From positions 1,265-65,264 of the forward strand of contig JBMFHN010000001.1 of assembly GCA_049976805.1 (NCBI GenBank): DNA of 64,000 nt. The letters are read 5' to 3'. Positions within the stretch are counted from its first letter, which is position 1. Each line of letters begins with the position of its first letter. The stretch is from Terracidiphilus sp. (GTDB taxonomy: Bacteria > Acidobacteriota > Terriglobia > Terriglobales > Acidobacteriaceae). Below the pieces are notes generated by a model. That model was given only the letters and a program-made list of their open reading frames with translations. It had not been told where the DNA came from and did no database searches. Both the position numbers and the translations under genes were made by a program. Shown here piece after piece: positions 10,674 through 34,638 of the stretch.

Positions 10674-10756
10674 GCCGACTCTGAGGGTACATCATGCAGC
10701 CCGGCGAGGACCAGAGCGCACACCTTTTAGCCTTCCAGGGCGGATCCCGGAGGTCT

Positions 10757-16534: not shown

Positions 16535-16567
16535 AACAGATTCACAGCGGCAGTTTCAGGAGCAGGG

Positions 16568-18145: not shown

Positions 18146-18158
18146 GGAGGAGCTGCGC

Positions 18159-18503: not shown

Positions 18504-18539
18504 GGCACGGAAAGGCCAATCGAGAAAGGGAGGGGTAAT

Positions 18540-18941: not shown

Positions 18942-18942
18942 T

Positions 18943-18977
18943 CCAGAGCCGGCCGGTGGCTGGCTCCGGGTTCTTTT
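18943..18977 (+). terminator. Rho-independent terminator-like hairpin after the biotin carrier gene
   Basis: CCAGAGCCGGCC-GGT-GGCTGGCTCCGG, a 12-bp stem with one mismatch and one G-U pair, followed by GTTCTTTT. Confidence 0.4.
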
Positions 18978-18992
18978 GGGGAAGGGGTTACG

Positions 18993-19469
18993 ATGAGCTG
19001 TGTCGATGAGGATGTAAAGCAAGTTCCGGGAATCAAATTCGTGGATCACGTCGCCATCTCCGTCAAGCAGGGCGAACTGGAAGGCCAGGTGAAGGCTTAC
19101 GGGATGCTGGGCTTTCGCGAAGTTCACCGCGAAGATGTTCTGGGGGGCGATCAGGTGCGGGAAGTCCTGCTGCGGGTCGGCGACGGCCCTAACCTGGTGC
19201 AGTTGCTCGAGCCCCTGACGGCGGATTCGCCGGTGCAGAAATTGATCGAGAAGAACGGCGGCAGGGGCGGACTGGCACACATCGCTTTTCGCGTCGAAAA
19301 CGCCCGGGAAGCCTTCGACGCGATGAAAGCCAGAGGATTCCAGATCATCGACAAGTCTCCCCGCAAAGGCTCGCGAGGAACCACGGTCTTTTTCGTTCAT
19401 CCCAAATCACAGGTCGAGAATCCCTTTGGAATTCTGATCGAAATCGTCGAAGACCCCGAGGGCAAGTGA
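18993..19469 (+). CDS. mce: Methylmalonyl-CoA epimerase (VOC/glyoxalase fold)
   Basis: DHVAISV...LLEPLTADSPVQKLIEKNGGRGGLAHIAFRVEN...GILIEIVE, and its position directly upstream of the mutase genes. Confidence 0.85.
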   Translation: MSCVDEDVKQVPGIKFVDHVAISVKQGELEGQVKAYGMLGFREVHREDVLGGDQVREVLLRVGDGPNLVQLLEPLTADSPVQKLIEKNGGRGGLAHIAFRVENAREAFDAMKARGFQIIDKSPRKGSRGTTVFFVHPKSQVENPFGILIEIVEDPEGK

Positions 19470-19474
19470 GGAAC

Positions 19475-21223
19475 ATGGCTACCGATCATCTGCTCCAGGA
19501 ATTTCCTCCCGTCAGCACCGAAATGTGGGAAGAGGTGATCCGCAAGGATCTGAAGGGCGCCGACTACGCCCGGAAGCTGATCTGGAAGGCGGAGGAAGGG
19601 CTCGCAGTCAAGCCTTATTATCGCGCCGAAGACATTGCCGGGCTGGAATATCTGGCTGCCGCGCCCGGCACCTACCCCTATGCGCGCGGCGCGCGCGCGG
19701 CCGGTGGCTGGCGCATCCGCGAAGAGATCGATGCGGCGAGTCCCGAAGAGGCCAACCGGGCGGCGCGCAACGCCATCCAGGCCGGAGCCGAGGAGATTGC
19801 GTTTACCCAGGCCGACATTCAGAGTGCCGCGGAACTGGAAACGCTTCTCGCCCAGCTGGACGAGATTCCCGTGCATTTCGAGCAGGCAGACGAACCGCTG
19901 CTGCGCCTGCTGATGGAGAGGCTGAAACGGAAACCGAGGACGGCGATGGTTTCGACCGGATGGAATCCTTTGGCTCATCCGGATTTCGCGGCGGAAGTCG
20001 CCGCTTCGGCGCTGCCCTGGTTCATTCCCTTCACCCTGCATGGCGAAGAGTTCGAGGAATCGGGCGCAACCGCCGTTCAAGAGGTCGGATTCACGCTGGC
20101 CGCCGGGGTTGATTATCTGGCCGCCCTCGAAGACCGCAAGGTCGATGCCGATCGCGCCGCCGCAGCGGTCGCCTTTTCCTTTGCCATGGGCACCAGCTAC
20201 TTCTTTCAGATTGCCAAGCTGCGCGCCTTCCGCATGGCGTGGGCGCAGGCCGCAGCCAGCTTCGGCGGCAGCAGGGAGGCCGCGAAAGCGCGCATCTACG
20301 CCCGCACCTCGCGGTGGAGCGAGACCCTCTACGATCCGCACGTCAACATTCTGCGCGCGACGACGGAAGCCATGGCGGCGGTTCTGGGCGGCGCAGATTC
20401 GGTCACGGTCGCGCCCTTCGATGAATGTTACAGGTCGCCCGACGAGGCCAGCCGCCGTCTGGCCCGCAATACGCAGATCATTCTGAAGCAGGAAGCCCTG
20501 CTCGCGCGGGTTGCCGATCCCGGCGGCGGGGCGTATTGCCTGGAGGCGATCACCGATTTTCTGGCCCGCGCAGGCTGGAAATCGATGCAGGAGATCGAAG
20601 CCGCAGGCGGCTATGCCGAGGCCAAGGCAGCAGGAACGATCGACAAGGAGCTCGCGCAGTCGCAGGCTGCCAAGGAAAAGGCCGTGTCGAGCCGCCGCCG
20701 CGCATTCACCGGGACCAACCAGCATCCGAATCTGCTGGAAAAGGCTCTCGATCGCATCGATGTTGCGCGCCTCGAAAGCCGGCAGCGCGGCGCCCGGATG
20801 TACGAGCAGCTTCGCCTGCGCACCGAGCGCAGCGCGGCCAAAACCGGCAGGACGCCGCACATTCTGCTCGCCGAGATCGGCGACGCCAGGATGCGCGCGG
20901 CGCGCTCCGGCTTTGCTGCCGACTTCTTTGGCTGCGCGGGATTCGATCTGAAGACCGGGCGTTTTTCGAGCGTCGAAGAAATTGCCACCGCCGAGGCGGA
21001 CCTGATCGTGCTCTGCAGCTCCGATGCGGAGTATCCGGGGCTGGCAGCGGAACTGATTCCGAAACTGAAGGCGCGGGGGCGCGAGACCCCGGTGATCGTG
21101 GCCGGAGCGCCGGAAACCACCGCTCAACTCGAGGCGGCCGGTGTCGCCGATTTTGTTCACGTGCGCAGCAATCCGATCGAACTTCTTGCCAAATGGCAGC
21201 AACGACTGGGGATCAAGGACTAA
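19475..21223 (+). CDS. mutA: Methylmalonyl-CoA mutase small (beta) subunit
   Basis: Mutase-fold N-terminal region ([14 protein letters not shown]) and a degenerate B12-domain C-terminus. It ends 2 nt before mutB. The track start GTG at 19466 is an alternative. Confidence 0.85.
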
Positions 21224-21225
21224 CA

Positions 21226-23366
21226 TGCGTCCAGACTTTTCAAAGATCGACTTCATGCCCGCGGTGGAAGAAACGAAGGGGAGCGAGAGCCAGGAATGGC
21301 TTTCCCCGGAGCACATTCCCGTCAAGAGCGCTTACACGAGCGAAGACCTGAATGGACTCGAACATCTCGAATACACAGCGGGCATTCCGCCCTACCTGCG
21401 CGGGCCCTACAGCACCATGTACGTCATGCGGCCCTGGACAATTCGTCAATACGCCGGCTTTTCGACCGCCGAAGAGTCCAATGCCTTCTACCGCCGCAAT
21501 CTGGCTGCAGGGCAGAAGGGGCTTTCGGTGGCCTTTGACCTGGCCACACACCGCGGCTACGACTCCGATCACGAGCGGGTGACGGGCGACGTGGGCAAGG
21601 CCGGTGTGGCCATCGACTCGATCCTGGACATGAAGATCCTCTTCGATCAGATTCCTCTGGGACAAATGTCGGTGTCGATGACCATGAACGGCGCGGTGCT
21701 GCCGATCATGGCGTTTTATATCGTCGCCGCCGAAGAGCAGGGCGTGACCACGGAGCAGCTGAACGGAACCATTCAGAACGACATTCTGAAAGAGTTCATG
21801 GTCCGTAACACCTATATCTATCCGCCGGCGGGCTCGATGCGGATCATCGGCGACATCTTCCGCTACTGCGCGGCGAAGATGCCCAAGTTCAACTGCATCA
21901 GCGTGAGCGGCTATCACATGCAGGAGGCCGGGGCCACGGCCGACATCGAGCTGGCCTACACGCTGGCCGACGGGCTCGAATATCTGCGCACCGGAGTCAA
22001 GGCGGGCCTGGACATTGATGATTTTGCGCCCCGTATCTCCTTCTTCTGGGGCATCGGCATGAACCATTTCATGGAGATTGCCAAGATGCGTGCCGCGCGC
22101 ATGATCTGGGCCAAGCTGGTGAAGACCTTCAATCCCCGGAATCCCAAGTCGCTGGCGCTGCGCACCCACTCGCAGACCTCGGGCTGGAGCCTGACGGCGC
22201 AGGATCCGTACAACAACGTGGTGCGCACCGCGGTCGAGGCGCTGGCCGCGGCTCTGGGGCACACCCAGTCGCTGCACACCAACGCGCTCGACGAGGCTCT
22301 GGCGCTGCCGACGGACTTTTCCGCGCGCATCGCGCGCAACACCCAGATTTATCTGCAGGAAGAGACCGACATCACGCGCATCGTCGATCCCTGGGCCGGC
22401 TCCTACTATGTGGAGCGGCTGACGCACGAGCTGATGCACGGAGCCTGGGCGCTGATCGAAGAGGTCGAGTCCCTGGGCGGCATGGCCAAGGCGATCGAGA
22501 CCGGCGTTCCCAAGATGAGAATCGAAGAGGCGGCAGCACGCAAGCAGGCCCGCATCGATTCGGGCCGGGACGTGATCGTGGGCGTCAATGCCTATCCTTC
22601 CCCCGAAGAACCGATGATTCCGGTGCTCGACATCGACAACGCCGCGGTGCGCGAGGCACAGATCAAGAGGCTTGCCCGGCTGAAGAGCGAGCGCGACGCC
22701 AAGGCGGTGCGCGCATCGCTCGATCAGCTGGAAAAATGCGCTTCGACGGGTGAGGGCAACCTGCTGGAGTGCGCGGTGGATGCGGCGCGCAAGCGGGCCA
22801 CGCTGGGCGAGATCTCCTCGGCTCTTGAAAAAGTCTGGGGCCGTTATGAGGCCACCACGCGTACCATTGCGGGAGTTTATTCGATGGAGAGTGCGAGCGC
22901 CGAGGAGTTCCAGAAGGCGCAGAAGATGGTTGCGGAGTTTGAGAAGGCCGAAGGCCGGCGTCCCCGCATTCTGGTGGCGAAGATGGGACAGGATGGCCAC
23001 GACCGCGGCTCGAAGGTCATCGCCACAGCCTTTGCCGATATCGGCTTCGACGTGGACATCGGCCCTCTGTTCCAGACGCCGCGCGAGGTTGCGCGCCATG
23101 CCGTTGAGAACGATGTGCATGTGGTGGGCGCCTCGTCGCTGGCCGCCGGCCACAAGACGCTGGTTCCGCAGTTGATTGCCGAGTTGCGCGCGCTGGGACG
23201 GGAAGACATCCTGGTGGTCGTCGGCGGCGTCATTCCGCCCCAGGACTACGAATTCCTTTATCAGGCGGGAGCCGTCGGCGTTTTCGGTCCGGGAACAGTG
23301 ATCCCGGTCTGCGCGCAGCGGATTCTCGACATTCTGAATGGCGGTCCGGCGGGAGGACGTTCCTGA
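21226..23366 (+). CDS. mutB: Methylmalonyl-CoA mutase large (alpha) subunit, B12-binding
   Basis: [53 protein letters not shown], and a C-terminal B12 domain with [10 protein letters not shown] (the DxHxxG motif). I prefer the ATG at 21226 to the track start at 21141. Confidence 0.95.
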
Positions 23367-24503
23367 TTGACCGATTCTGGCCAAAGCGCCCTTCATGTCC
23401 TTCCCGGATGTGCGGTGCCCGAGCCGCCGCGGAAGTTGATTCCCCGCGCGCAGAGCCGGCGCCGGACTCTTTCACGGGAGCAATGGGTCGAGGGGATCCG
23501 CAGCGGTCAACGCTCCATTCTGGCCCAGGCCATTACCCTCATCGAGAGCACGCGCACGGCGGACCGGGAGCTGGCCGAGCAAATCGTCGACGATTGCCTT
23601 CCCCATAGCGGGAACTCCATTCGCGTTGGTATTACCGGGGTTCCCGGGGCAGGCAAAAGCAGCCTGATCGAAAGACTGGGCATGTTCCTGATTGGCGAAC
23701 AGGGACAGAAGATTGCCGTGCTGGCGATCGATCCCAGCAGCCAGATCTCGGGCGGAAGCATTCTCGGCGACAAGACCCGCATGCAAACGCTGGCATCAAG
23801 CGAGTCGGCTTTTATTCGTCCCAGTCCCTCGCGCTGCTCGTTGGGTGGTGTGGCGCAGCGTACCCGCGAGGCCATGCTGCTGTGTGAGGCGGCCGGGTAC
23901 GGCACCATTCTGATCGAGACGGTGGGCGTGGGCCAATCCGAAATTGCCGTTCACGACATGGTGGATTTTTTTCTGCTGATTACGCTGGCCGGGGCCGGAG
24001 ATGAGCTGCAGGGCATGAAACGCGGCGTGATGGAGATGGCCGACGTCGTGGCGGTCAACAAGGCCGATGGGGAGAATCTGGCCGCTGCCGAGCGGGCGCG
24101 GAACGTGGCCGAGAATGCTCTGCACTATCTTCCTGCCTCACCCTCCGGCTGGACGCCGCGCGCGCTGACCTGTTCAGCACAGACCGGCGAGGGAATCACA
24201 GATTTATGGAGTGCGGTGATCGAGCGCATCCGGCTGGCCCGGGCCAACGGCTGGTTTGATTCGAACCGGCGGCGTCAGGCCCGGCGGTGGATGCAGGAGA
24301 TCATTGAGGAAGGGCTGCGGCGGCAATTCGAGACGCACCCGGTCATCCGGGAGCGCAGAAAGGCTCTCGAACAGGATGTGACCGAAGGCCGCATATCGTC
24401 GTTTCGGGCCGCGCGCCTGCTGCTCGAAATGTATGCCGGCCCGGGCTCGATATCCCATACCCCGGATTCATCCCAAGGCGCCGATCGATCCGTTTCGGGC
24501 TGA
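23367..24503 (+). CDS. meaB: Methylmalonyl-CoA mutase-associated GTPase MeaB/ArgK
   Basis: GITGVPGAGKSSLIE, IETVGVGQSE and NKADG G-protein motifs. The exact start is uncertain (TTG at 23367 or a downstream GTG). Confidence 0.9.
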   Translation: MTDSGQSALHVLPGCAVPEPPRKLIPRAQSRRRTLSREQWVEGIRSGQRSILAQAITLIESTRTADRELAEQIVDDCLPHSGNSIRVGITGVPGAGKSSLIERLGMFLIGEQGQKIAVLAIDPSSQISGGSILGDKTRMQTLASSESAFIRPSPSRCSLGGVAQRTREAMLLCEAAGYGTILIETVGVGQSEIAVHDMVDFFLLITLAGAGDELQGMKRGVMEMADVVAVNKADGENLAAAERARNVAENALHYLPASPSGWTPRALTCSAQTGEGITDLWSAVIERIRLARANGWFDSNRRRQARRWMQEIIEEGLRRQFETHPVIRERRKALEQDVTEGRISSFRAARLLLEMYAGPGSISHTPDSSQGADRSVSG

Positions 24504-24638: not shown

Positions 24639-25130
24639 TCAAACGGCAGGAGCAGGGGTTGATTGCGGAATCGACCGGGAACCGCTTTGCGAATCGCCCG
24701 CCAGCCTGGAGCGGGGCGTGTCTTCCGGAGGCGCGGACAGGTCGGCGATGGTGATGCCGCGCAGCAGATCGGAGATGCTGTCGCTCACGCGCGCCAATGG
24801 CTCCTTGATCGTGCATCTGGGGGTCAGATTGCAGCCTGTTCCGCTCGAACCGCAGGAGGTGATGAACAGCGGGCCATCGATGGCGAAGATGACCTCGAAG
24901 GCGGAGATCTGCTGCGGCGGCTTTTGCAGCGAATAGCCGCCGCTCGTCCCGGCGTGCGAGCGCAAGATCCCGGCCTTCGCCAGTTGTTGCAGGCTCTTGG
25001 CCAGCAACTGCGGCGGGATGTGATGGGCTTCGGCGATGTTGCGCGTGCGCAGCGAAGCCTCATCGGAGTGCTCCGCCATATACTTCAGGGCGATGAGACC
25101 GTAGCCGGCTTTCCTGGTCAACCGGAGCAT
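24639..25130 (-). CDS. Rrf2-family transcriptional regulator with three-Cys Fe-S ligand motif (IscR/NsrR-like)
   Basis: MLRLTRKAGYGLIALKYMA winged-helix N-terminus. Cys triad SCGSSGTGCNLTPRC (C-x6-C-x5-C). It is the last gene of the minus-strand operon of the island. Confidence 0.85.
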   Translation of the reverse strand: MLRLTRKAGYGLIALKYMAEHSDEASLRTRNIAEAHHIPPQLLAKSLQQLAKAGILRSHAGTSGGYSLQKPPQQISAFEVIFAIDGPLFITSCGSSGTGCNLTPRCTIKEPLARVSDSISDLLRGITIADLSAPPEDTPRSRLAGDSQSGSRSIPQSTPAPAV

Positions 25131-25187
25131 GGGAACCTCGCAGTGTGAGAATGCTCAGGGATTGGATCCGAAGGCGCGAGGAAAAAC

Positions 25188-25526
25188 TCAGTGGTCACAG
25201 ATATTCTCTCCCGTCATCAGGCTGCCGCCGAGATAGTCGGCGACGAGCTTTTCCGGTGCCTCGGCCGGCGCGCCGATGATGACCTGCACTCCCTGTTCGG
25301 CAAAGAGACCATGGGCGCGCTGACCCATGCCTCCGGTGATGATCATGTTGACGCCCTTTTCGGCAAGCCACGGCGGTAACAGGCCCGGCTGATGCGGTGG
25401 AGCCGGGATGTCCGTGCGGCTGAGAATCCTTTTCTCCGAATCGTCCACGTCGAGGATGGCGAAGTGTCGGCAGTGGCCGAAGTGCGGGGCGAGTTTTCCG
25501 TCCGCCAGTGGAATTGCAATTTTCAT
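25188..25526 (-). CDS. NifB/NifX-family (dinitrogenase FeMo-cofactor-binding fold) small protein, HFGHC type
   Basis: 112 aa from the ATG at 25526: MKIAIPLADGKLAPHFGHCRHFAILDV...PPHQPGLLPPWLAEKGVNMIITGGMGQRA...ENICDH. The track ORF (to 25880) carries an implausible N-terminal extension. Confidence 0.8.
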   Translation of the reverse strand: MKIAIPLADGKLAPHFGHCRHFAILDVDDSEKRILSRTDIPAPPHQPGLLPPWLAEKGVNMIITGGMGQRAHGLFAEQGVQVIIGAPAEAPEKLVADYLGGSLMTGENICDH

Positions 25527-25630
25527 GCTGGAGTCCTTTCCTTTCCCTTTCCTGGGCCGCTTGTGGCGATCTTCCAAACAGCTTTTCTGCTGGCCGGATT
25601 CCCATCCAACCGCCTGCCGGGCAGGTTGAT

Positions 25631-26482
25631 TCAGGGGGTCAATTTCCTGAAGGCAATCAATGGGCAGTTCTTGCAGATGTCGGCGCCCGGGAATCCGTCG
25701 CCGGGACGGATGAGGGAACTGCTCCCCTGACTTTCGATGCGCTCCATCAAGCGCCGACATACGTCTCCGATTCGAGATCCGGGGATGATCACATTCACTT
25801 CGCTGCGTTCGGTTTTCCCGGCGCTGTAGCTGCCCGAACAGGCCGGAAGCAGATTGAAACTCTGGTTCAGGTGAGTCCACACATTGCCGCCGCAGGCCGA
25901 GGAATTCATGGTGATGGAGGTCTGCAGAGGATGAGTGTCGGTTGCGGCCATGTAGTCGACCGCCAGGTGGTAGGCCTGCATGGGGTCGCAGTAAAAATGG
26001 ACCGTATCAGGGCCGCCAAAGACGCCGGCTTTGGCAAGCGGCGCCACGGCCACAGCCAGCAACCCCGCCGGCAGCCGCGGCTTGGACAGGATAAAACGCG
26101 TGGATTGATCGAGATCTCTGGCATACTTGGCCTGACTTTCGATCTCGCTTGCATCCAGTTCCTTCCAGCCAAAACAATACCGGGCGTGCTTGCAGCTCAG
26201 GTCCTTCATCTCGCCATAGATCACCTTCCCCTGCATGCGGGCAGCGATCTCCCACTGGCAAAAGGTGATCGGCTTGAGCGGCGTTTCAATCTCATCGCAG
26301 CTCTTCTTGAAGTCGTCGATTTCCGCCGGATCGAAGAAAAATCTTACCGCGATGGGATCGTGGTAAAGACGCAGTTCACGCATCAGCAAGACCTGCATCT
26401 CGCCGTACGAGATTGCATCGGTGCTGCGTTTGAATTCCGCCGGAGAGCCCGGGCTGATCGGCGGGAAGGTTTCCCGGCTCAT
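25631..26482 (-). CDS. DUF169 family protein
   Basis: 283 aa: PIAVRFFFD, FCQWEIAARMQGKVIY, CFGW, ACGGNVW. This overall pattern matches DUF169 (COG2043) as I recall it. Its start overlaps the upstream stop as ATGA. Confidence 0.75.
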   Translation of the reverse strand: MSRETFPPISPGSPAEFKRSTDAISYGEMQVLLMRELRLYHDPIAVRFFFDPAEIDDFKKSCDEIETPLKPITFCQWEIAARMQGKVIYGEMKDLSCKHARYCFGWKELDASEIESQAKYARDLDQSTRFILSKPRLPAGLLAVAVAPLAKAGVFGGPDTVHFYCDPMQAYHLAVDYMAATDTHPLQTSITMNSSACGGNVWTHLNQSFNLLPACSGSYSAGKTERSEVNVIIPGSRIGDVCRRLMERIESQGSSSLIRPGDGFPGADICKNCPLIAFRKLTP

Positions 26483-26838
26483 CCGCGTTCTCCTGCCGCG
26501 CCGGCCGTCATGGGCTTGAGCGCGCCCGATCCGAAGGCTTCCAAGGCTTCGACGACGCTTCCGCCCGTCACCGGATAAACGACGACCCCGCCAGCCTCCA
26601 AGGCCGCGAGCGCTTTAGGGCCGACGTGCCCGGTGATGAGTACCGTGACGCCAAGATCCAAAATCGTTTTGGCAGCCTGGATGCCAGCGCCCTGCGTGGC
26701 ATTGAAGTTCACGGCGTTGCTCACCGTCGTGACGGCGTTTGTTTCAAGATCCACCACGACAAAGTACCGTGCCCGGCCGAATTGTGGATCAACATCGGCC
26801 TTGAGGCCTTCCTGCTGAGAGGTGATTGCCAGCTTCAT
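26479..26838 (-). CDS. NifX/orange-protein (ORP)-like small protein
   Basis: 119 aa from the ATG at 26838 (GGAGAAG upstream): MKLAITSQQEGLKADVDPQFGRARYFVVVDLETN...ATQGAGIQAAKTILDLGVTVLITGHVGPKALAALEAGGVVVY. Confidence 0.8.
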   Translation of the reverse strand: MKLAITSQQEGLKADVDPQFGRARYFVVVDLETNAVTTVSNAVNFNATQGAGIQAAKTILDLGVTVLITGHVGPKALAALEAGGVVVYPVTGGSVVEALEAFGSGALKPMTAGAAGERG

Positions 26839-26924
26839 GTTTCTTCTCCACAAAGAAGCAAGCACGCCGGGTGCCAACTTTCGTCGCGCAGAGAGATCGC
26901 TTCATCGATCAGATTGCAAAGAGT

Positions 26925-27344
26925 TTAGATCCTTTCAGGAAGCAGGATTCCAAAAAAAGGAAGAGACGAGACCATTGCAGAATGCATCACATCCTGCCGC
27001 GGTTGCGTCCGTCCTGGGGGCTGGCGGATCGTCCGGAGGCCTTGAGTCTGCGATCGAGGGCGGATGGAGTTTGCCGTCGCGCCGGCAACAGGCTTGCCGC
27101 TGGACAGGGTCCGCCGCAGCGCGCAGTCTCCTTCCCGGATGCTCGCCCGGAACACATCCGGGCATTGCCGGCCCAGAGCGCCCTGGCGGCGCAGCCCCGT
27201 GATGCGCTCGGCGGCGCGGTTGAAGGCCGTAATGCGCCACGGGTGATCGACGCTGAAAACGCCTTCGTTGATGGAGTCGAGGATCGGGTCGGTGTGCGCC
27301 TCCGCCCTCTTCGTCTGGAGGATCGAGTCTGTTGCATTTTGCAA
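26925..27344 (-). pseudogene. Truncated PAS-domain fragment, the N-terminal remnant of a sigma54-type activator (or a stand-alone partial PAS protein)
   Basis: ILDSINEGVFSVDHPWRITAFNRAAERITGLRRQGALGRQCPDVFRASIREGDCALRRTLSSGKPV matches the first two thirds of the Cys-containing PAS domain found at the N-terminus of many anaerobe sigma54 activators. After GKPV the sequence becomes low-complexity (AGATANSIRPRSQTQGL...) and stops. No AAA+ or HTH region follows in any frame. Only a TTG start is available. Confidence 0.5.
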
Positions 27345-27458
27345 TCATGGTTTCTTGATAACCGAGCATTTTGCAAGAATCGAAGGACTTGACTTTCCGC
27401 TAACTGTTGATGATAAGGTAGTTACTGTTTTGGACCCTGGGATGCTAAAACCCCAGTG
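27345..27458. promoter_or_regulatory. AT-rich divergent control region between the two operons of the island
   Basis: It is visibly AT-rich compared with its flanks. It contains a sigma54-like TGGACC-N5-ATGCT at 27431-27446 (plus strand) and a sigma70-like TTGACT-17-GATAAG at 27389-27417. ATTTTGCAA is repeated at 27336 and 27368, and ACTGTT is repeated at 27403 and 27424. Confidence 0.5.
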
Positions 27459-28037
27459 ATGAGGATTGCGATTCCACATTGGCAAGGGCGCATTGCTCCC
27501 GTCTTCGATGTGGCCAGCCATCTCTTGCTGGTCGACGTGGAGGACGGCCGCGAAGCGCACCGCGAGGAGAGACGCCTTGTGGCCGCGGAGTTGTCAGCCC
27601 GCGCAGAAGAATTGCTGAACTGCAGTCCGGATGTGCTGATCTGCGGTGCAATTTCGGCGCCTCTGCAGCTCAGGATTGCCGCTTCCGGGGTCCGGACCAT
27701 CGCCTTCGTCTGTGGGGCGGTGGATGAAGTGCTCGGCGCCTACTGGAGTGGCACGCTCGCGGATCCGGCCTTTGCGATGCCGGGTTGCCGCAGATGGCGC
27801 TGGAGAAGCGGAGAAGATGTGCTGCCGGTTGGCTTTGGCGGAGGTCGCCGTCGCAGAGGCCGCGGAGCGGAAGAGAGTCCGGCTGAAATTCCACTCACCC
27901 GCGATGGGCTGCCATCCGCCGTAAGAGGAGAGTTTGCCACCTGCCCGAACTGTGGCGGGAGGGTGCCCCGCAAAAGGGAACCGGTTCCGACGCGGAATCT
28001 CTGTTCGAGGTGTGGCGCTTTTCTGGCGTTCTTTTGA
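27459..28037 (+). CDS. NifB/NifX-like protein fused to an Arg/Gly-rich linker and a C-terminal CxxC...CxxC zinc ribbon
   Basis: MRIAIPHWQGRIAPVFDVASHLLLVDVEDG...VLICGAISAPL...FAMPGC, then GFGGGRRRRGRG, then CPNCGGRVPRKREPVPTRNLCSRCG. ATG at 27459 (track start GTG at 27456). Confidence 0.75.
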   Translation: MRIAIPHWQGRIAPVFDVASHLLLVDVEDGREAHREERRLVAAELSARAEELLNCSPDVLICGAISAPLQLRIAASGVRTIAFVCGAVDEVLGAYWSGTLADPAFAMPGCRRWRWRSGEDVLPVGFGGGRRRRGRGAEESPAEIPLTRDGLPSAVRGEFATCPNCGGRVPRKREPVPTRNLCSRCGAFLAFF

Positions 28038-28081
28038 AGTCGCAATCTTCATCGTTGTTCATTCAAGAAGGAGGAATTCAA

Positions 28082-28414
28082 ATGCCATTTGGAGATCAAA
28101 CAGGGCCCCTGGGACAAGGTTCGATGACGGGCCGTGGCCGGGGATATTGTGCGGGAAATGCGGGACCGGGACGATTTGAGTCAGCGCCGGGTTCCGGCAT
28201 GGGGCGAGGAGGACGCGGTGGACGTGGCCGGTGCAACCGGTTCCGTGCCGCGGGAACGAATGTCAGGGAGACGCCGGTCGCGGCTTCATCCGCGCCCGCA
28301 GACCGGCCGCAGGAAGTTGCAGCCCTGCGGAGCACGATCGACGAGCTGCGGAGTTCGCTCAACGAAATCCGCAAACGCGTCGAGGAACTGAGTTCAGCGT
28401 CCAAGACGGAATAG
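28082..28414 (+). CDS. DUF5320 family protein (Gly/Arg-rich N-terminus, C-terminal coiled coil)
   Basis: MPFGDQTGPLGQGSMTGRGRGYCAG is the hallmark N-terminus of DUF5320. The C-terminal part is LRSTIDELRSSLNEIRKRVEEL. AAGGAGG lies 7 nt upstream of the ATG at 28082. Confidence 0.8.
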   Translation: MPFGDQTGPLGQGSMTGRGRGYCAGNAGPGRFESAPGSGMGRGGRGGRGRCNRFRAAGTNVRETPVAASSAPADRPQEVAALRSTIDELRSSLNEIRKRVEELSSASKTE

Positions 28415-28480
28415 GAAGGGGAGAACGGAAACATGGACCTGGAGGAGGCGGCCGGGCAGTCGTACGGTAAAGCAGCGGTT

Positions 28481-28775
28481 CGCGCACGCTGGTCCGCGGC
28501 ACTCCGCCACTGTTGGCGGGGTGCCTGGGCCGGAGCGATGCAGCCAGCCGGAGCGAAGGCCGCAAGAGGAGCGCCAGGCGGGCCTGATCGCGGCAGGATT
28601 TGCGGAGCCGAGAATCGAGCCAACCCGGACCTTCCGGGCCAGCGACGTTCGCGAGTTCCTCTGTGCTGCTGGAGCGGATGCCATCACACTTGCCGATGAG
28701 TTGGATGGAAAGGTGATGAGCGCATCCGTGCGCGCCTCCAAACCTGCCGCGGATGGCGCGACTTCAACGAAATAA
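28481..28775 (+). pseudogene. Remnant of the C-terminal region of an ArsM-type (arsenite) SAM methyltransferase
   Basis: One frame reads LIAAGFAEPRIEPTRTFRASDVREFLCAAGADAITLADELDGKVMSASVRASKP. This resembles the conserved ArsM C-terminus (AGF..v.IEPTR.y...dAreFL......d...aP.vdGKfMSAfvRA.KP) from memory. The preceding CWRGAWAGAMQ piece is in a different frame. No Rossmann or SAM-binding part exists upstream. Confidence 0.35.
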
Positions 28776-28787
28776 GGAGGGAATCCG

Positions 28788-29216
28788 ATGAGGAAGCTAT
28801 GTGGTTTCTGGGTAGTCTTGATAGCGCTGGCAGTTTTCTGGTCGGGACCGGTCTCTGCGTTTTCCCAAATACGTTCCAGTGCTCAACGAGTTTATAACCC
28901 GAAGACGGAAATCACGATCAAAGGTACAGTCGAGAAGGTAACGGAAATCGGCGAGCCACGATGGACGGGTACCCATCTGATGTTGCGAACCAGTGATCAG
29001 ACATATGACGTGCATGTTGGTCCGACCGCTTACCTTGCACGGAATGGCTTCACTTTCGCGGTCGGGGATCAGATCGAAGTCACCGGAGCCCTGATCAAGT
29101 CTGACGGAACGAAGGCGATTGTGGCCCGCGAGATCAAGAAAAAGGGGAGCATCCTCACTCTGCGCGACCGTCGTGGAATTCCAGTCTGGTCGCGGGGACC
29201 GCGGCCCATCGACTGA
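28788..29216 (+). CDS. Secreted small beta-rich protein (possibly the MamS/MamX-like domain family)
   Basis: Signal peptide MRKLCGFWVVLIALAVFWSGPVSAFS. Body TIKGTVEKVTEI...GTHLMLRTSDQTYDVHVGPTAYL...GDQIEVTG...REIKKKGSILTLRDRRGIPVW. Codon usage is noticeably AT-richer than in neighbouring genes. The family name is recalled, not verified. Confidence 0.6.
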   Translation: MRKLCGFWVVLIALAVFWSGPVSAFSQIRSSAQRVYNPKTEITIKGTVEKVTEIGEPRWTGTHLMLRTSDQTYDVHVGPTAYLARNGFTFAVGDQIEVTGALIKSDGTKAIVAREIKKKGSILTLRDRRGIPVWSRGPRPID

Positions 29217-29299
29217 CAGCCCCGCAGCGTGGCAAGACGCCGGTAAGCTGCCCGGCAGTGCGGCCTCAGGAGCCGCAAAAGAAGCGACAAGGGAGTCTC

Positions 29300-30181
29300 A
29301 TGCGCATCGCAATCGCCAGCGGCAAGGGCGGAACCGGAAAAACGACGGTCAGCACGAATCTGGCTCTTGCCGCAAGCCGGCGCGGCCTGGATACCGCTTA
29401 CATCGACTGCGATGTCGAAGAGCCCAATGGGCAGCTCTTTCTGAAGCCGCAGATCACCGCATCGAATGACGCGGTTCGCACGCACCCGAGCGTGGATGAA
29501 GAAAAATGCGTCCATTGCGGGCGGTGCGGCGAGATCTGTCAATTCAGCGCGATCGTGTGTATCGGCCAGAAGGTTCTTGTTTACCCGGAACTCTGTCATG
29601 GCTGCGGAGGATGCACACTGGTGTGTGATTCGGGCGCCATCAGGGAGGTTTTCGCACGGACAGGAACTGTGGAGACTGGAACCGCTGGCCCCATCCGCTT
29701 TGCGCAGGGCACGCTCCGCATCGGCGAGGCGATGAGCACTCCGCTGATCCGTCAGGTCAAGAAGACGGTGGGCGAGGCGGAGTTGACCATCCTCGATTGC
29801 CCACCCGGCACTTCGTGTCCTGTGATCGAGAGTGTGCGCGGTGCCGATCTGGTTCTGCTGGTGACCGAGCCGACGCCCTTTGGGTTGAACGATCTGCGCC
29901 TGGCCGTCGATATGGTGGCGGCATTGCGTCTGCCGATGGCGGTGCTGATCAACCGTTCCGGGATCGGGGACCGGAAGACATACGAATTCTGCCAGTCCGG
30001 GAACCTTCCGGTTTGGGCTGAAATTCCCGACGACCGCCGCGTGGCCGAAACCTATTCGCGGGGTGAGTTCGCCTATGATACGGTTGTTGAATTTCGCCGG
30101 GCGATCGACCGCGTTCTCGATCAATGCTGCCAGCGGGATTGGAAGGAATCGCTGCGGCAACGCGAGGCAATGCGCAGATGA
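29300..30181 (+). CDS. MinD/ParA-family P-loop ATPase with inserted 2x[4Fe-4S] ferredoxin domain
   Basis: IAIASGKGGTGKTT deviant Walker A. CVHCGRCGEIC and CHGCGGCTLVC ferredoxin motifs. ATG at 29300 with AAGGGAG upstream. Confidence 0.85.
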   Translation: MRIAIASGKGGTGKTTVSTNLALAASRRGLDTAYIDCDVEEPNGQLFLKPQITASNDAVRTHPSVDEEKCVHCGRCGEICQFSAIVCIGQKVLVYPELCHGCGGCTLVCDSGAIREVFARTGTVETGTAGPIRFAQGTLRIGEAMSTPLIRQVKKTVGEAELTILDCPPGTSCPVIESVRGADLVLLVTEPTPFGLNDLRLAVDMVAALRLPMAVLINRSGIGDRKTYEFCQSGNLPVWAEIPDDRRVAETYSRGEFAYDTVVEFRRAIDRVLDQCCQRDWKESLRQREAMRR

Positions 30182-31176
30182 ACTCACTCGTCCAGCTTCG
30201 TTTCCGCAAGGCCCGGCCCGTGAAGGAACTGGTTGTCATCAGTGGCAAGGGAGGCACGGGAAAGACATCGCTGGTGGCATCGTTTGCCGCCTTGCGGGGG
30301 AACGCAGTGCTTGCCGATTGCGACGTCGATGCCTCCAATCTTCATCTGGTGACGGCTCCCCGCATCGTTCACAGCGAGCCGTTCACAGGCGGCAAGCGCG
30401 CCTTCATTGACGTCAATCTCTGCCAGGCCTGCGGCCAGTGCGAGGAGCTTTGCCGGTATGACGCGATTGACAGTGACCCTTCTTGCGGCGCGTCCCTCGT
30501 GGCGAGCTACCGGGTCGATCCGTTGGCGTGTGAGGGTTGCGGCGTCTGCGCCTGGTTTTGTCCGGTGCAGGCGATTCAAATGCGGCCTGTGGTCAGTGGC
30601 GCGTGGTTTGTTTCCGAGACCCGCTTTGGTCCCATGGTCCACGCCCGGCTCGGCGCCGCAGCGGAGAATTCCGGCAAGCTGGTAAGCCTGGTTCGCGCCC
30701 GCGCCCGCCAGATCGCGGCAGAACGCGGAATCGATCTGGTGCTGATCGATGGCTCGCCCGGCATCGGCTGTCCCGTGATTGCGTCGATTACCGGCGCGGA
30801 CCTGGCCGTGATCGTTACCGAACCCACCCCCAGCGGCCTGCATGACATGGAGCGCGTGACCGAGTTGACACGGCATTTCGGCATTCCGGCCGCGCTTTGC
30901 ATGAACAAGTGGGATCTGAACGCCGGCATGAGCCGCCTGATCGAGACAAAAGCCCGGGAACGAGGCGTGACGCTGGCGGGAAGAATTCGCTACGATCAAT
31001 CTGTGACAGAGGCCCAGGTCGAGGGAAAAGCTGTCGTCGAATGCGGCGCGGGAGGCGGCGCGGAAGACATCGGGGAGATATGGAAGGGGATAAGGAAGAT
31101 ACTCGCGGGGAGTGATCCGGATGCGGATCAGTGCCGTTCCCAGAGGGCACTCGCCGATGTAAAGACTGAAGGCTAG
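30178..31176 (+). CDS. MinD/ParA-family P-loop ATPase with inserted 2x[4Fe-4S] ferredoxin domain (paralog)
   Basis: VVISGKGGTGKTS, plus CQACGQCEELC and CEGCGVCAWFC. Its start overlaps the previous stop as ATGA. Confidence 0.85.
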   Translation: MNSLVQLRFRKARPVKELVVISGKGGTGKTSLVASFAALRGNAVLADCDVDASNLHLVTAPRIVHSEPFTGGKRAFIDVNLCQACGQCEELCRYDAIDSDPSCGASLVASYRVDPLACEGCGVCAWFCPVQAIQMRPVVSGAWFVSETRFGPMVHARLGAAAENSGKLVSLVRARARQIAAERGIDLVLIDGSPGIGCPVIASITGADLAVIVTEPTPSGLHDMERVTELTRHFGIPAALCMNKWDLNAGMSRLIETKARERGVTLAGRIRYDQSVTEAQVEGKAVVECGAGGGAEDIGEIWKGIRKILAGSDPDADQCRSQRALADVKTEG

Positions 31177-31309
31177 AAAACGCCCGTCGCATCGGGGAGA
31201 AACAGGATGAGATCGTGCCTCTTCGGGAAATCTCCGTGGCTGCTTTTTCAAGTTTCAGGCTGGCTGCCTGACGTTTTCCAGATGGCGATCCAGAAAGAAG
31301 GAGACTGAA

Positions 31310-32659
31310 ATGAACGCAGGAGAGAAGTTACTCATCATCGGCGGTGGCGGCGGCGGATTCGCGGCGGCCATGCGGGCGAAGGCGCTCATGCCAAACATCG
31401 ATGTTACCCTGGTGCGCAGGGAAAAGCTGTTCATCGTCCGGTGCTCGCTGCCTTACGTGGTTTCCGGCCTGGTGACACCCGAATCCATCGTCAATCCGGA
31501 CCATAAGTTCATCGCATCCGGAATCAATGTCATCGTTGACGAAGTCACAACGGTGGATCCGAAGAGGAATGTCGTCCGCCTTTCGGACGGCCGCGAGCTT
31601 TCCTACGACAAGCTGGTCATGGCAACAGGAGCCAGCCCGGTGATGCCCCCGATCGAGGGGCGGGATCTCGGGGGAGTCTTTATGCTGCGAAGCCTTTCGG
31701 ACGCTGAAAGGATTCGTGCTTTCATGCAGGAGCAGAAGCCCCGGAAGTTAATCTTCGTCGGAGCGGGATTCATTACTCTGGAGCTTGCCGCCGGCATCCT
31801 GAGTTTATCTCCGGGAAGTTATCAGATTACCATTGTTGAACTGCTGGATCGCCCTCTGCCCATGATGCTGGATCCGGAATTCAGTGAAAAGATCCGCGGC
31901 TATTTGATTGAAAAAGGCATGAAAATGCAGATGGGAAGAAAGGTGGAAAAGATTCTTGGAAGGGACGGAACCGTGGACGGCGTACTGCTGGACAACGGTG
32001 AACGACTCGACGCCGATATGGTTTTTCTGAATGTCGGGGTGCGGGCGAACCTGGATCTGGCAAAACAGATCGGCCTCGAGACGGGCCGTTTCGGCATCAA
32101 GACCAATGAATACATGGAAACCTCGCAACCCAACATCTTTGCCCTGGGCGATTGCGCCGAGAAGAAGCACTTCATCACCGGAAAGCCCGTGCCGGGCGTT
32201 CTTCGCGGTCCGGCCATCATCGCGGGCCGGCATATCGCGAAAAGACTGGCCGGATACGATGTGCCGTTTCCAGGCGTGCTTGACAATGCGGTGGTCAAAC
32301 TTTTTGACAAGAGCATAGCGTTCGTCGGGCTTACGGAAAAACAGGCCAGGGAAGAGGGATTCGAGCCGGTATGCGCCACGGTGGAATCCCGAAGCAAGCA
32401 TGCCATGATGCCGGGGGTAAAACCGTGGACGATCAAGCTCGTCTTTGACAGAAAAAGCAAGAAGCTGATCGGCGGTCAGATACTGAGCGACGCTGAGGCT
32501 CCCGCCAAGGAAATCGACACGGTCAATGCGCTGATACTGGGTGGCAAGACGGTCTATGATCTCTGCTCGCTCATGTGTGCCGGCCAGCCGGAAATGTCTT
32601 CAGAACCCAGTGCGGAGCCGATCTGCATCGCCGCGGAACAGGCTTTGGTGAAGATGTAA
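31310..32659 (+). CDS. FAD-dependent pyridine nucleotide-disulfide oxidoreductase, NADH oxidase/CoA-disulfide reductase family (single redox Cys)
   Basis: LLIIGGGGGGFAAA, active-site-like FIVRCSLPYVV, second Rossmann fold FVGAGFITLE, and ALGDCA. AT-richer codon usage than the surrounding genes. Confidence 0.85.
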   Translation: MNAGEKLLIIGGGGGGFAAAMRAKALMPNIDVTLVRREKLFIVRCSLPYVVSGLVTPESIVNPDHKFIASGINVIVDEVTTVDPKRNVVRLSDGRELSYDKLVMATGASPVMPPIEGRDLGGVFMLRSLSDAERIRAFMQEQKPRKLIFVGAGFITLELAAGILSLSPGSYQITIVELLDRPLPMMLDPEFSEKIRGYLIEKGMKMQMGRKVEKILGRDGTVDGVLLDNGERLDADMVFLNVGVRANLDLAKQIGLETGRFGIKTNEYMETSQPNIFALGDCAEKKHFITGKPVPGVLRGPAIIAGRHIAKRLAGYDVPFPGVLDNAVVKLFDKSIAFVGLTEKQAREEGFEPVCATVESRSKHAMMPGVKPWTIKLVFDRKSKKLIGGQILSDAEAPAKEIDTVNALILGGKTVYDLCSLMCAGQPEMSSEPSAEPICIAAEQALVKM

Positions 32660-32985
32660 TATCTCCGGTCTTACGCGCTGGCATCCTCTTTCGCGATGTT
32701 TTTGCGCGGTCAGCGCGACGCGCTTTGCCGGCATGAGGCGATCCATGCGGACAAAGCCGCCACGTGTCCCTTGTGCGAAAGGCCGGATCGATCCTCTGAC
32801 AGGCGAGGGATCGAGGCGGCGGCGCCGCGGGTTCTTTCCGGCATCTGGAATGAAGTCATCGCGTGACTCGCCGGGGGAAAAGGAGCAGATCTTCGGCTTC
32901 AACGGAGAGCAGGAAGATCTTTCCAGGCGCACCTGATTTACATTGAAGATGGACCCTATTTTTCCAATTCTCATTACGGGGAGTT

Positions 32986-34638
32986 ATGACCAGGAAACGT
33001 GTGGTGATCGTAGGCGGAGTTGCCGGGGGTGCGACTTGCGCCGCGCGGTTGCGGCGTCTTGATGAACAAGTGGAAATTCTGCTTCTTGACCGCGGACCGT
33101 ATGTGTCTTTTGCAAATTGCGGACTGCCCTATTACGTGGGGAACCAGATCCACGACGAGGCGAAGCTGCTGCTGGCAACGCCGGCCCTTTTCAAAGAGCG
33201 TTTCAACATCGAGGTCCGGACCCGCAACGAGGCTCTTGCCATCAACCGCGAGGCGCGCACGGTCAAAGTCCGCGACCTGATCACGGGACGCGAGTCTGAC
33301 GAGCCTTACGACCAGCTTGTGCTGTCGCCGGGGGCGTCGCCGATCCGGCCGCGGTGGAGCGGGATTCACCTGCCGGGCATCTTTACCTTGCGCACCATTC
33401 CCGACAGCCGCGAGATCCGCGACTGGATCGATTCACGGCATCCGCAGAAGGCGATTGTCGTCGGAGGCGGATTTATTGGTCTTGAAATGGCCGAAAACCT
33501 TGCTCATCGCGGCATCAAGGTGACCGTTGTCGAGCTGGCCAACCAACTGATGCCGCCGCTTGATCCGGAGATGGCCGAGTATGCCCGCCAGCAACTGGTT
33601 TCTCACGGGGTGGGAATCTCGCTCGGGGACGGTGTCGCTGGTTTTGAGCAGTCCGGGGGCGGTGGATTGACAGTGCGTACGCAGGCCGGCGCCGTTTTCG
33701 ATGCCGATCTTGTCATGCTTGCCATCGGGGTGCGGCCGGAGACGAAGCTTGCTCATGACGCGGGCCTGGAGATGGGCGACCGTGGCGGGATTCGCGTCGA
33801 TGGCTCCATGCGCACAAGCGATCCGCATATTCTGGCCATCGGCGACGCTGTCGAAGTGAAGAACCGCGTCACCGGGCAGTGGGAATTGATTCCTCTGGCC
33901 GGTCCAGCGAACCGCCAGGCCAGGACCGCGGCCGATGCGATCTGCGGCCGCGACAAGCACTTCGACGGAGTGCTCGGAACCTCCGTGTGTGGCTTCTTTG
34001 GCCTGACCGTTGCCATGACTGGAGCAACGGAGAAAGCCCTGCTTCGTGCCGGAAGGACGGACTATCAGGCCGTGTACCTGCACACCAATCAGCACGTCAC
34101 CTACTACCCGGGCGCGCGTCCCATCCACTTCAAGCTGCTCTTTCGGAAATCAGATGGCCTGGTATTGGGCGCGCAGGCAGTCGGCGGAGATGGCGTTGCC
34201 CGCCGAATTGATGCGCTGGCTCTTGCCATCCAGATGAAGGCAACCGTTTTCGACCTGGAAGATGCGGAGCTTTGCTACGCGCCCCAGTACGGCTCGGCAA
34301 AAGATCCGGTCAATCTGGCTGGCATGGTGGCCGCCAATGTTCTGCGGGGAGATGTGGAGATTGCTCCGTGGAGCAATCTTCATTCGGAACGGGTTTTTCT
34401 TTTGGATGTTCGCGATCCGAACGAGTACCGCTCCGATGCCGTTCCTGGATCTCGAAACATTCCGCTGGGGCAGTTGCGTTCGCGGTTGCACGAGCTGCCA
34501 CGGTCAGGCGAGATATGGGTGAACTGCGCCATCGGTCAGCGCGGTTACTACGCGTGCAGGATCCTCACACAGAACGGATTCCGCGCGCGCAACCTTTGCG
34601 GAGGCGTCCAGACTTATCGGGCGCTCTACCCCGCTTGA
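32986..34638 (+). CDS. CoA-disulfide/persulfide reductase fused to a C-terminal rhodanese domain (CoADR-RHD)
   Basis: VVIVGGVAGGATCA and SFANCGLPYYVG (redox Cys). The C-terminal rhodanese part is LLDVRDPNEYRSDAVPGSRNIPL...IWVNCAIGQRGYYA. Confidence 0.9.
   Translation: MTRKRVVIVGGVAGGATCAARLRRLDEQVEILLLDRGPYVSFANCGLPYYVGNQIHDEAKLLLATPALFKERFNIEVRTRNEALAINREARTVKVRDLITGRESDEPYDQLVLSPGASPIRPRWSGIHLPGIFTLRTIPDSREIRDWIDSRHPQKAIVVGGGFIGLEMAENLAHRGIKVTVVELANQLMPPLDPEMAEYARQQLVSHGVGISLGDGVAGFEQSGGGGLTVRTQAGAVFDADLVMLAIGVRPETKLAHDAGLEMGDRGGIRVDGSMRTSDPHILAIGDAVEVKNRVTGQWELIPLAGPANRQARTAADAICGRDKHFDGVLGTSVCGFFGLTVAMTGATEKALLRAGRTDYQAVYLHTNQHVTYYPGARPIHFKLLFRKSDGLVLGAQAVGGDGVARRIDALALAIQMKATVFDLEDAELCYAPQYGSAKDPVNLAGMVAANVLRGDVEIAPWSNLHSERVFLLDVRDPNEYRSDAVPGSRNIPLGQLRSRLHELPRSGEIWVNCAIGQRGYYACRILTQNGFRARNLCGGVQTYRALYPA

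Follow-up and report, generated by a model that had tools for sequence, protein, structure and literature searches.

An acidobacterial orange-protein locus with sulfur-linked neighbors and a putative deletion in its sigma54 activator gene

What kind of locus is the island of about 10 kb found in the genome of Terracidiphilus sp., and what could switch it on? We analyzed a stretch of 64,000 nt of this acidobacterium (contig JBMFHN010000001.1 of assembly GCA_049976805.1, positions 1,265–65,264, forward strand), referred to below as the window. The island occupies window positions 24639–34638: minus-strand genes (24639–26838) and plus-strand genes (27459–34638) diverge around the remnant of a regulatory gene, orpR. 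A sequence-only reading of the same DNA had recognized two divergent operons mirroring the orange-protein (ORP) locus of Desulfovibrio vulgaris and had proposed them as the best candidate in the window for an undescribed functional system. The ORP complex has been studied since 2004–2011, and its role is still argued, with cell division, Mo/Cu handling, and Fe–S maturation all under discussion. As a whole, the island is probably an acidobacterial ORP locus, linked to sulfur chemistry, in which orpR was deleted and whose operons are either driven by an OrpR paralog or silent.

Genes were called from an open reading frame (ORF) listing and annotated by Pfam and NCBIfam profile searches; related loci fetched for comparison are labeled with L-numbers. 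The annotation bore out the earlier gene list, an ArsM remnant excepted. In D. vulgaris Hildenborough, the ORP locus consists of orp2 (DVU2105-2103), orpR (DVU2106), and orp1 (DVU2107-2109). The gene order of the island matches that of this locus, including the divergent sigma54 operons around the gene of a PAS-sigma54 activator, and the same divergent layout was found in relatives. The 119-aa protein of the minus operon had its best match among solved structures in the ORP of D. gigas (2WFB, 6e-20), and the likeness to the D. vulgaris locus claimed earlier therefore stands. This Orp8 homolog contains no Cys, which fits non-covalent holding of a cluster; cluster binding is predicted. Also shared with D. 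vulgaris are the Di-Nase domain with its HFGHC and CDH motifs, the two paralogous MinD-type ATPases with a 2x[4Fe-4S] insert, and a small protein encoded before them. Judged by these features, the island appears to be an orthologue of the Desulfovibrio orp locus.

The three NifX-fold proteins and the two ferredoxin-insert MinD ATPases named in the sequence-only reading were confirmed by profiles, although the NifX-ribbon protein only weakly: its Pfam score of 23.9 bits is below the gathering cut-off of 26.3. The tail of this protein has a pI of 10.9 and contains 13 Gly, 17 Arg+Lys, and 8 aromatic residues among 92; full-length orthologs were present in L002, L004, L005, L008, and L010. The Di-Nase protein matched positions 263–364 of 365 of the NCBIfam MrpORP model at 1e-37 and has the HFGHC and CDH motifs described for MrpORP's Di-Nase domain (PMC6345978). 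The second half of a two-domain MrpORP was missing, as no Mrp/NBP35 gene was found in the island; a separate or fused Mrp/NBP35 gene was present in 14 other ORP loci. The first ATPase had 8000 homologs at E ≤ 1e-10; the Walker A motif GKGGTGKT and two CxxCxxCxxxC motifs were invariant. The start of the second ATPase gene overlaps the stop of the first one, and the pair of 2x[4Fe-4S] P-loop ATPases fits the description of Orp3/Orp4. A DUF5320 gene typically lies upstream of the first ATPase gene in ORP loci; from gene order (DVU2105-2103, DVU2107-2109, and related loci), the DUF5320 protein would correspond in position to Orp5 and the NifX-ribbon protein to Orp7.

With the first ATPase as query, a scan restricted to one genome for each species yielded at least 561 stretches of reference genomes, and gene content was tallied in 86 loci (Table 1). 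According to these counts, the core of the island is the known ORP set, and the term "undescribed functional system" was an overstatement. The main value of the island lies in an idea open to experiment, namely that sulfide or sulfane sulfur is what ORP complexes work with. The genes of DUF169, the MamS-like protein, and Rrf2 are rare add-ons, found among these loci only in acidobacterial ones, so that their combination with the core is not a conserved one. The best 80 of the at least 561 stretches belonged to Acidobacteriota, Planctomycetota, Verrucomicrobiota, NC10, Lentisphaerota, Desulfobacterota, Bacillota, and others. The ORP locus is not limited to classical strict anaerobes, being common in Acidobacteriota (metagenome-assembled genomes (MAGs) of the Granulicella/Terracidiphilus type), Planctomycetota, NC10, and other groups. 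Homologs of the first ATPase with 62–78% identity came, where the source names the organism, from Acidobacteriota, Acidobacteriaceae, Terracidiphilus, or Bryobacteraceae/Bryobacterales, and the same locus was found on six long contigs carrying close homologs (L001, L002, L004–L007). The island differs from the D. vulgaris locus in the internally deleted orpR, in the free-standing Di-Nase domain lacking the Mrp/NBP35 half of Orp9, in the added genes of DUF169, a MamS-like secreted protein, two CoADR-family flavoproteins, and an IscR-type Rrf2, and in its host, which is an acidobacterium and not a sulfate reducer.

At the place of the "PAS fragment" of the sequence-only reading, a PAS-sigma54-HTH activator of 392–477 aa is encoded in L001, L002, L004, L006, and L007, which substantiates the PAS/sigma54 link proposed there. 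A near-full-length activator at the same place was found in L008 by the later genome scan; no activator was found at this place in L005. The L007 protein contains GAFTDA and the PAS motif C-X8-C-X3-C, as does D. vulgaris OrpR (DVU2106), and the activators encoded in the other relatives match it at 81–89% over almost the whole length. No cognate OrpR with a three-Cys PAS domain, an AAA+ domain with GAFTDA, and an HTH domain, all of which the L007 protein has, was encoded in the window. The remnant is composed of two pieces: a 5′ piece (27060–27305), corresponding to OrpR residues ~2–83 with the middle Cys of the PAS motif replaced by Arg, and a 3′ piece (~26990–27059; ...LDRRLKA versus ...TLYRRLKA in relatives), corresponding to the last ~25 codons of orpR and lying in a different frame. 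In all five comparisons of the window with relatives, DNA homology stopped at 27060 and returned only close to where the downstream NifX gene begins; of the L007 OrpR, tblastn matched only residues 2–82 in the window. Since homology breaks at 27060 and the end codons of orpR survive in another frame, about 1 kb is missing. The "PAS fragment" thus appears to be orpR after an internal deletion of this size, by which the whole AAA+ domain and most of the HTH were removed.

An independent truncation of orpR, just after CALRR and with all three Cys kept, was found in L010 (8496–8738, minus strand). The whole minus operon was lost from this locus; the plus operon, its promoter, and boxes were kept. 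DNA identity of the remnant between the window and L010 was 88%, versus 71–77% for the neighboring genes. In L001, a stray C-terminal OrpR fragment (HTH_8; 3573–3863, minus strand) was found 4 kb from the intact orpR; it points to earlier rearrangement and to orpR paralogs in this group.

The sigma54 promoters ahead of both operons appear intact from their sequence. The −24/−12 element of the minus operon, TGGCAC-N5-GTGCT, lies 23–38 nt before the ORP gene, and its position is kept in L001, L002, L004, L006, L007, L008, L009, and L012; the element of the plus operon, TGG-N9-ATGC, lies ~14 nt before the ATG. Boxes of the TGCAWTTTGCA type accompany both promoters, one on the minus side and two on the plus side, and both plus-side boxes, located ~60–110 bp upstream of the promoter, are kept in nine fetched relatives, one of which is a Terriglobia MAG. 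Exact matches to TGCAWTYTGCA numbered two in the 64-kb window, both of them in this locus, versus 0.18 expected; the third copy has one mismatch. A generic promoter/terminator scan was uninformative, giving 11 terminator-like sites versus 10 expected. Two genomes have independently lost the activator yet kept promoters, boxes, and structural genes, and represent natural tests of control. In all nine aligned relatives (L001–L012; window 27429–27461), the −12 element of the plus operon ends only ~14 nt before the ATG, which implies that the transcript has no leader or almost none.

Without exception, sigma54 promoters depend on an AAA+ enhancer-binding protein (PMC4641369). Rrf2 therefore cannot activate these promoters and cannot have taken over the operons; with the AAA+ domain of orpR deleted, they would be either run by an OrpR paralog outside the window or off. 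Apart from the orpR remnant, the window encodes a single sigma54 activator, which belongs to the unrelated PocR-GAF type. The claim that Rrf2 acts instead of the usual sigma54 regulator could not be maintained, because both sigma54 promoters and their boxes are kept and because L007 encodes Rrf2 beside a full-length OrpR.

The origin of this Rrf2 was indicated by its relatives. Like IscR, it has an Rrf2 winged helix-turn-helix (Pfam) and three clustered Cys (motif read from the sequence), while NCBIfam SUF/IscR models match it below their cut-offs. Unlike IscR, it is not encoded beside isc genes: it does not head an isc or suf operon in the window, where a convergent MeaB gene follows. The closest relatives, acidobacterial proteins with 57–68% identity, are encoded directly upstream of iscS. 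A gene of iscS size follows in all six inspected loci (Pfam confirmed a class-V aminotransferase in two), and in L104, the full iscS-iscU-iscA-hscB-hscA set is present. Because these relatives head isc operons, the Rrf2 of the window is most likely an IscR-type paralog relocated to the last position in the ORP minus operon, a lineage-specific addition. The junction between the HFGHC-type NifX gene and Rrf2 also occurs in L007, the only other locus with Rrf2 at the end of the minus operon. Rrf2 was rejected as a conserved part of the ORP system: none of the 27 loci obtained with the Rrf2 query (24 at 57–68% identity) was near an ORP gene. A duplicated 3′ end of the HFGHC gene lies just upstream of Rrf2 in L007 (2406–2474, minus strand), which is a sign of past rearrangement. 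The lesson for annotation is that a deleted regulator can leave a scar that reads as a "PAS fragment" and that an adjoining Rrf2 should not be taken as the regulator's replacement.

The two last genes of the plus operon encode CoADR-family flavoproteins. The best PDB matches of the 449-aa protein were A. fulgidus Npsr (6PFZ) and P. horikoshii CoADR, and an ortholog with 88% identity is encoded after the ATPase genes in L010. In the 550-aa protein, the Pfam domains Pyr_redox_2, Pyr_redox_dim, and Rhodanese were identified, and the motifs SFANCGLPY and CAIGQR (rhodanese) were read from the sequence; it combines a single-Cys pyridine nucleotide-disulfide oxidoreductase with a catalytic-Cys rhodanese. 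A full-length match, SFANCGLPY, and the rhodanese Cys loop relate it to CoA-persulfide reductase (CoAPR)/Npsr enzymes (B. anthracis CoADR-RHD 3ICR, S. loihica Npsr 3NTA, E. faecalis CoAPR 8A56), so that the same activity is predicted. An exact-sequence look-up of this protein returned no record. The known enzymes are discussed in connection with sulfur respiration or homeostasis of H2S and reactive sulfur species—the E. faecalis CoAPR paper treats H2S mis-regulation—whereas here, as in relatives, the gene follows the ORP ATPases.

The coupling of ORP genes to persulfide-reductase-type enzymes, seen by the sequence-only reading in this one island, recurs in other genomes. A CoADR-family gene was present in 17 of the 86 ORP loci, and 14 of these genes were ≤550 bp from an ORP gene; the loci belong to Acidobacteriota, Planctomycetota, Verrucomicrobiota, Thermodesulfatator, and Desulfobacterales. 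Orthologs of the CoADR-rhodanese protein (75–83% identity) are encoded on the same strand 90–204 bp after the ATPase genes in L001, L004, L006, and L008, and a CoADR-family gene lies between the two ATPase genes in L011, L014, L059, and L079. Three active-site motif types were represented: SFANCGLPY with rhodanese, RCSLPY, and PCGIPY. Within the locus data set, CoADR matches were enriched near core genes versus the outer flanks (14 versus 3, p = 0.016). Their density near the ORP core was ~2.5 per 100 kb; the genome-wide density is, by our rough estimate, well under 0.1 per 100 kb. DsrE was embedded in 4 further ORP loci.

The recurrence of CoADR genes at ORP loci, in three motif types and several phyla, supports a link to persulfide/sulfide chemistry. 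Gene neighborhood and enzyme homology hint that the ORP complex handles sulfide or sulfane sulfur, and CoADR and DsrE genes inside or beside ORP operons point to these as the missing substrate. No paper linking ORP loci with CoADR genes or with Acidobacteria was found, within a partial coverage of the literature. In Thermococcales growing on elemental sulfur, Nsr (CoADR-type), SipA/IssA (NifX-fold), and Mrp/NBP35 are co-induced, which sets a precedent in physiology for this trio. Just upstream of the ORP locus in L006 (521–5591), a PsrABC-like set was found, consisting of a molybdopterin oxidoreductase, a 4Fe-4S subunit, and an NrfD membrane subunit; by sequence, it appears to be of the polysulfide/thiosulfate-reductase type.

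In the ancestral state, as suggested by these sequences, an OrpR-type activator would bind the TGCAWTTTGCA boxes and switch on both sigma54 operons under reducing conditions; the PAS domain of D. vulgaris OrpR contains a [4Fe-4S] cluster that responds to redox state. If they behave like their D. vulgaris homologs, ORP, the Di-Nase protein, the NifX-ribbon protein, DUF5320, and the two ATPases would form a cytoplasmic complex, in which the NifX-fold proteins may hold labile inorganic metal-sulfide clusters and the Fe–S ATPases may assemble them or pass them on. The two CoADR-family flavoproteins would reduce persulfide/polysulfide to sulfide with NAD(P)H and would either feed sulfide to the ORP complex or keep sulfane sulfur away from it. 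In the strain studied, the operons would be driven by an OrpR paralog encoded outside the window, or they would be silent.

A parallel to such a scheme is offered by IssA/SipA, the thioferrate storage protein of Thermococcales, which is described as an IPR003731 domain followed by an unstructured, cationic tail. By description, the NifX domain of the window protein with its cationic Gly/aromatic-rich tail resembles it (pI 10.9 of the tail versus 10.7 in IssA), and in both cases, a CoADR-family sulfur reductase and P-loop Fe–S ATPases stand alongside. In contrast to IssA/SipA, the window tail ends in a zinc ribbon, and the genes are clustered here, while for the archaea joint induction by elemental sulfur is reported. 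The parallel can be carried further: ORP complexes in anaerobes of many phyla would build or store metal-sulfide clusters on NifX-fold proteins directly from sulfide that CoADR/Npsr set free from CoA persulfide or polysulfide, independently of cysteine desulfurase and in an IssA-like manner, with DUF169 as a further cluster or sulfur carrier. We regard this extended scheme as decidedly unlikely; if true, sulfide-fed cluster building would give the ORP system a function.

Several facts weigh against the interpretation of the island as a sulfur-linked ORP locus with a deleted activator gene. The P-loop half of MrpORP, the sole ORP component with demonstrated transfer activity, is absent from the island. 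Both cell division and Fe–S maturation have been proposed for the ORP complex, the role of which is itself unsettled, so the mechanism above rests on an open foundation. The acidobacterial ORP proteins are known here from their genes alone, and the loss of orpR may have left the operons without any expression. As to sulfur, 80% of the sampled ORP loci had no CoADR gene within 10 kb, which makes the coupling facultative, and the 86 loci counted are not phylogenetically independent. Absence of CoADR from most ORP loci also agrees with another explanation, in which the two CoADR genes and Rrf2 form an independent sulfur/sulfide detoxification unit of the cst/CoAPR type beside the ORP locus, with no coupling. 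CoAPR/Npsr carry out persulfide reduction alone in E. faecalis, S. loihica, and A. fulgidus, the E. faecalis CoAPR gene belongs to a CstR-controlled operon, and gaps of 327 bp before the CoADR-rhodanese gene and 134 bp before the CoADR gene leave room for own promoters. However, CoADR genes of all three motif types stand at ORP loci of several phyla, including the four loci where they separate the ATPase genes and the four acidobacterial loci where they closely follow them; Rrf2 is the distal gene of the opposite operon, and its relatives are regulators of isc genes and not of sulfide detoxification genes. An independent unit is thus very unlikely. A service in cell division or septum placement through the MinD-like ATPases, as first proposed for D. 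vulgaris, with the clusters acting only as redox sensors, is most improbable: no division gene was found in or beside any examined locus, the recurrent neighbors (CoADR, DsrE, Mrp/NBP35, ferredoxins, and the IscR paralog) are related to sulfur and Fe–S, and the demonstrated biochemistry is Fe–S cluster binding and transfer.

The deletion in orpR raises the question of whether the locus is transcriptionally dead, i.e., a relic at an early stage, carried by an acidobacterium that lives aerobically or microaerobically, and silenced in both operons by the loss of orpR and with the ArsM-like scrap as a further sign of decay. The strict need of sigma54 promoters for an enhancer-binding protein (PMC4641369) agrees with this explanation, as do the loss of the AAA+ domain, most of the HTH region, and one cluster-ligand Cys from orpR, the PocR-GAF type of the sole other sigma54 activator in the window, and the fate of L010, where an independent truncation of orpR is accompanied by loss of the whole minus operon. 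Yet the 11 intact genes of the island have uninterrupted reading frames and ratios of nonsynonymous to synonymous substitution rates (dN/dS) of ~0.1–0.3 versus relatives, the promoters and all three boxes are intact, and the orpR remnant, with 88% DNA identity to L010, is better conserved than its neighbors, unlike a freely decaying sequence. Intact frames, low dN/dS, kept cis-elements, and the identity of the remnant argue against long-standing decay; recent silencing is possible. Moreover, 64 kb of the genome are in view, so a paralog could act in trans, and the second-orpR fragment of L001 shows that paralogs exist in the group. A dead locus is therefore unlikely, and an ORP locus that has lost its own activator gene, with operons paralog-driven or silent, is retained as the best explanation.

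Table 1. Predicted features of the island, their position in the window, and the occurrence of the corresponding gene among the 86 ORP loci
Feature	Position	Strand	Evidence	Occurrence
IscR-type Rrf2, 163 aa, C-X6-C-X5-C, last minus-operon gene	24639–25130	-	Pfam Rrf2 7.6e-32	1/86
Free-standing Di-Nase (NifX-fold) domain, MrpORP/Orp9 type, 112 aa, HFGHC and C-terminal CDH	25188–25526	-	Pfam PF02579 1e-20	56/86
DUF169, 283 aa, six invariant Cys	25631–26482	-	Pfam PF02596 1.2e-46, 159.6 bits versus cut-off 27	3/86
Orange protein (Orp8) homolog, 119 aa	26479–26838	-	PDB 2WFB 6.3e-20; Pfam PF02579 1.9e-21	70/86
Sigma54 -24/-12 promoter of minus operon, TGGCACCCGGCGTGCT	26861–26876	-	sequence alignment	
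orpR remnant, ORF of 139 aa with first half of PAS domain	26925–27344	-	DNA and protein alignment to relatives	31/86 (OrpR)
Enhancer-like box TGCATTCTGCA, upstream of minus promoter	26976–26986	-	aligned with TTGCATTTTGCAA in all relatives	
Two enhancer-like boxes, TGCATTTTGCA (27333–27343) and one-mismatch copy (~27367–27377)	27333–27377	+	alignment	
Sigma54 -24/-12 promoter of plus operon, TGGACCCTGGGATGCT	27429–27444	+	aligned with TGGTCCGCNNNATGCA of relatives, GG and GC kept	
NifX-like domain with Gly/Arg/Trp-rich cationic tail and CPNC...CSRC zinc ribbon, 192 aa	27459–28037	+	Pfam PF02579 5.4e-5	48/86 (NifX-like N-domain)
DUF5320, 110 aa, Gly/Arg-rich N-terminus with 2 Cys, helical C-terminus	28082–28414	+	Pfam PF17253 7.7e-23	52/86
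Doubtful ArsM-like C-terminal remnant, 84-aa ORF	28521–28775	+	single NCBIfam match NF008823, E 3.4e-4	0/86
Secreted MamS/MamX-domain-like protein, 142 aa, signal peptide	28788–29216	+	NCBIfam MamS 2.3e-7	4/86, all acidobacterial
First MinD/ParA-type ATPase, Orp3/Orp4 type, 2x[4Fe-4S] insert, 293 aa	29300–30181	+	Pfam CbiA/ParA and 2 Fer4	
Second, paralogous MinD/ParA-type ATPase, 2x[4Fe-4S] insert, 332 aa	30178–31176	+	Pfam CbiA/ParA and 2 Fer4	82/86
CoADR/NSR-type single-cysteine flavoprotein, 449 aa, RCSLPY	31310–32659	+	PDB 6PFZ 1.4e-65	17/86 (CoADR family)
CoADR-rhodanese fusion, CoA-persulfide reductase/Npsr type, 550 aa	32986–34638	+	PDB 3ICR 1.5e-169, 3NTA 1.2e-163, 8A56 5.4e-139	17/86 (CoADR family)

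Regarding DUF169, the invariant residues of its subfamily are C75, C97, C197, C215, C270, and C273 together with several His, and the AlphaFold2 model had a pLDDT of 85.6. No PDB relative was found by sequence, and the best Foldseek match by fold had an E-value of 0.14 and a TM-score below 0.25. Orthologs with 60–69% identity are encoded in Desulfovibrionaceae. In three fetched Desulfovibrionales loci (L088, L089, and L090), no orp gene was found within 10 kb of DUF169. In these loci (10001–12024; two Nitratidesulfovibrio assemblies and Thermodesulfomicrobium), DUF169 is paired with a TauE/SafE permease, and an ArsP_1 permease gene lies upstream of the pair in two of them; DUF169 may, on these hints, be tied to sulfur-anion handling. 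Between the ORP and HFGHC genes, the place of DUF169 is taken by a DUF364 gene in L004 (6010–6804, minus strand) and in L008, and a CGGC-domain gene is added beside DUF169 in L007 (4922–5275, minus strand); this slot looks like a variable cassette.

Orthologs of the MamS-like protein in L002 and L007 carry PF26390; no PDB relative of the protein was found by sequence. The ArsM remnant listed in the sequence-only reading was left with one weak profile match: the ORF had no Pfam match, no informative PDB match, and no counterpart in 89 related ORP and DUF169 loci. Its assignment to the methyltransferase family recurring in ORP loci was rejected, as the profile of that family gave no support. The families found embedded in ORP clusters (L008–L087) were Mrp/NBP35 (14), an ARMT1-like phosphatase (12), and a Methyltransf_11 SAM methyltransferase (12) and, in fewer loci, DnaJ-domain proteins (7), DUF5320-ferredoxin fusions (7), DsrE (4), radical SAM proteins (4), and metallo-beta-lactamases (4). 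To our knowledge, none of these recurrent accessory families other than Mrp/NBP35 has been discussed together with ORP.

Housekeeping genes with no relation to the island flank it, those of methylmalonyl-CoA mutase and MeaB to the left and that of tricorn protease to the right, and its G+C content is no different from that of the remainder of the window. Cytochrome c, also named in the sequence-only reading, is indeed encoded in the window, outside the island (57779–58360, plus strand), between the genes of a UbiA-family prenyltransferase (54785–55765, minus strand) and an MqnC/CofH-type radical SAM protein (58454–59500, plus strand); the UbiA-family protein could be heme O synthase, as in the sequence-only reading, or a menaquinone prenyltransferase. 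The gene run adjoining the island on the left (15029–24503, plus strand) encodes a carboxyltransferase, an oxaloacetate-decarboxylase-like carboxylase, two methylmalonyl-CoA mutase subunits, and MeaB and looks like a propionate/succinate pathway. A bacterial microcompartment (BMC)-domain shell protein (1169–1975, minus strand) is encoded near the PocR-GAF-sigma54 activator of 762 aa (2877–5165, minus strand), which suggests a sigma54-controlled microcompartment locus in this acidobacterium.

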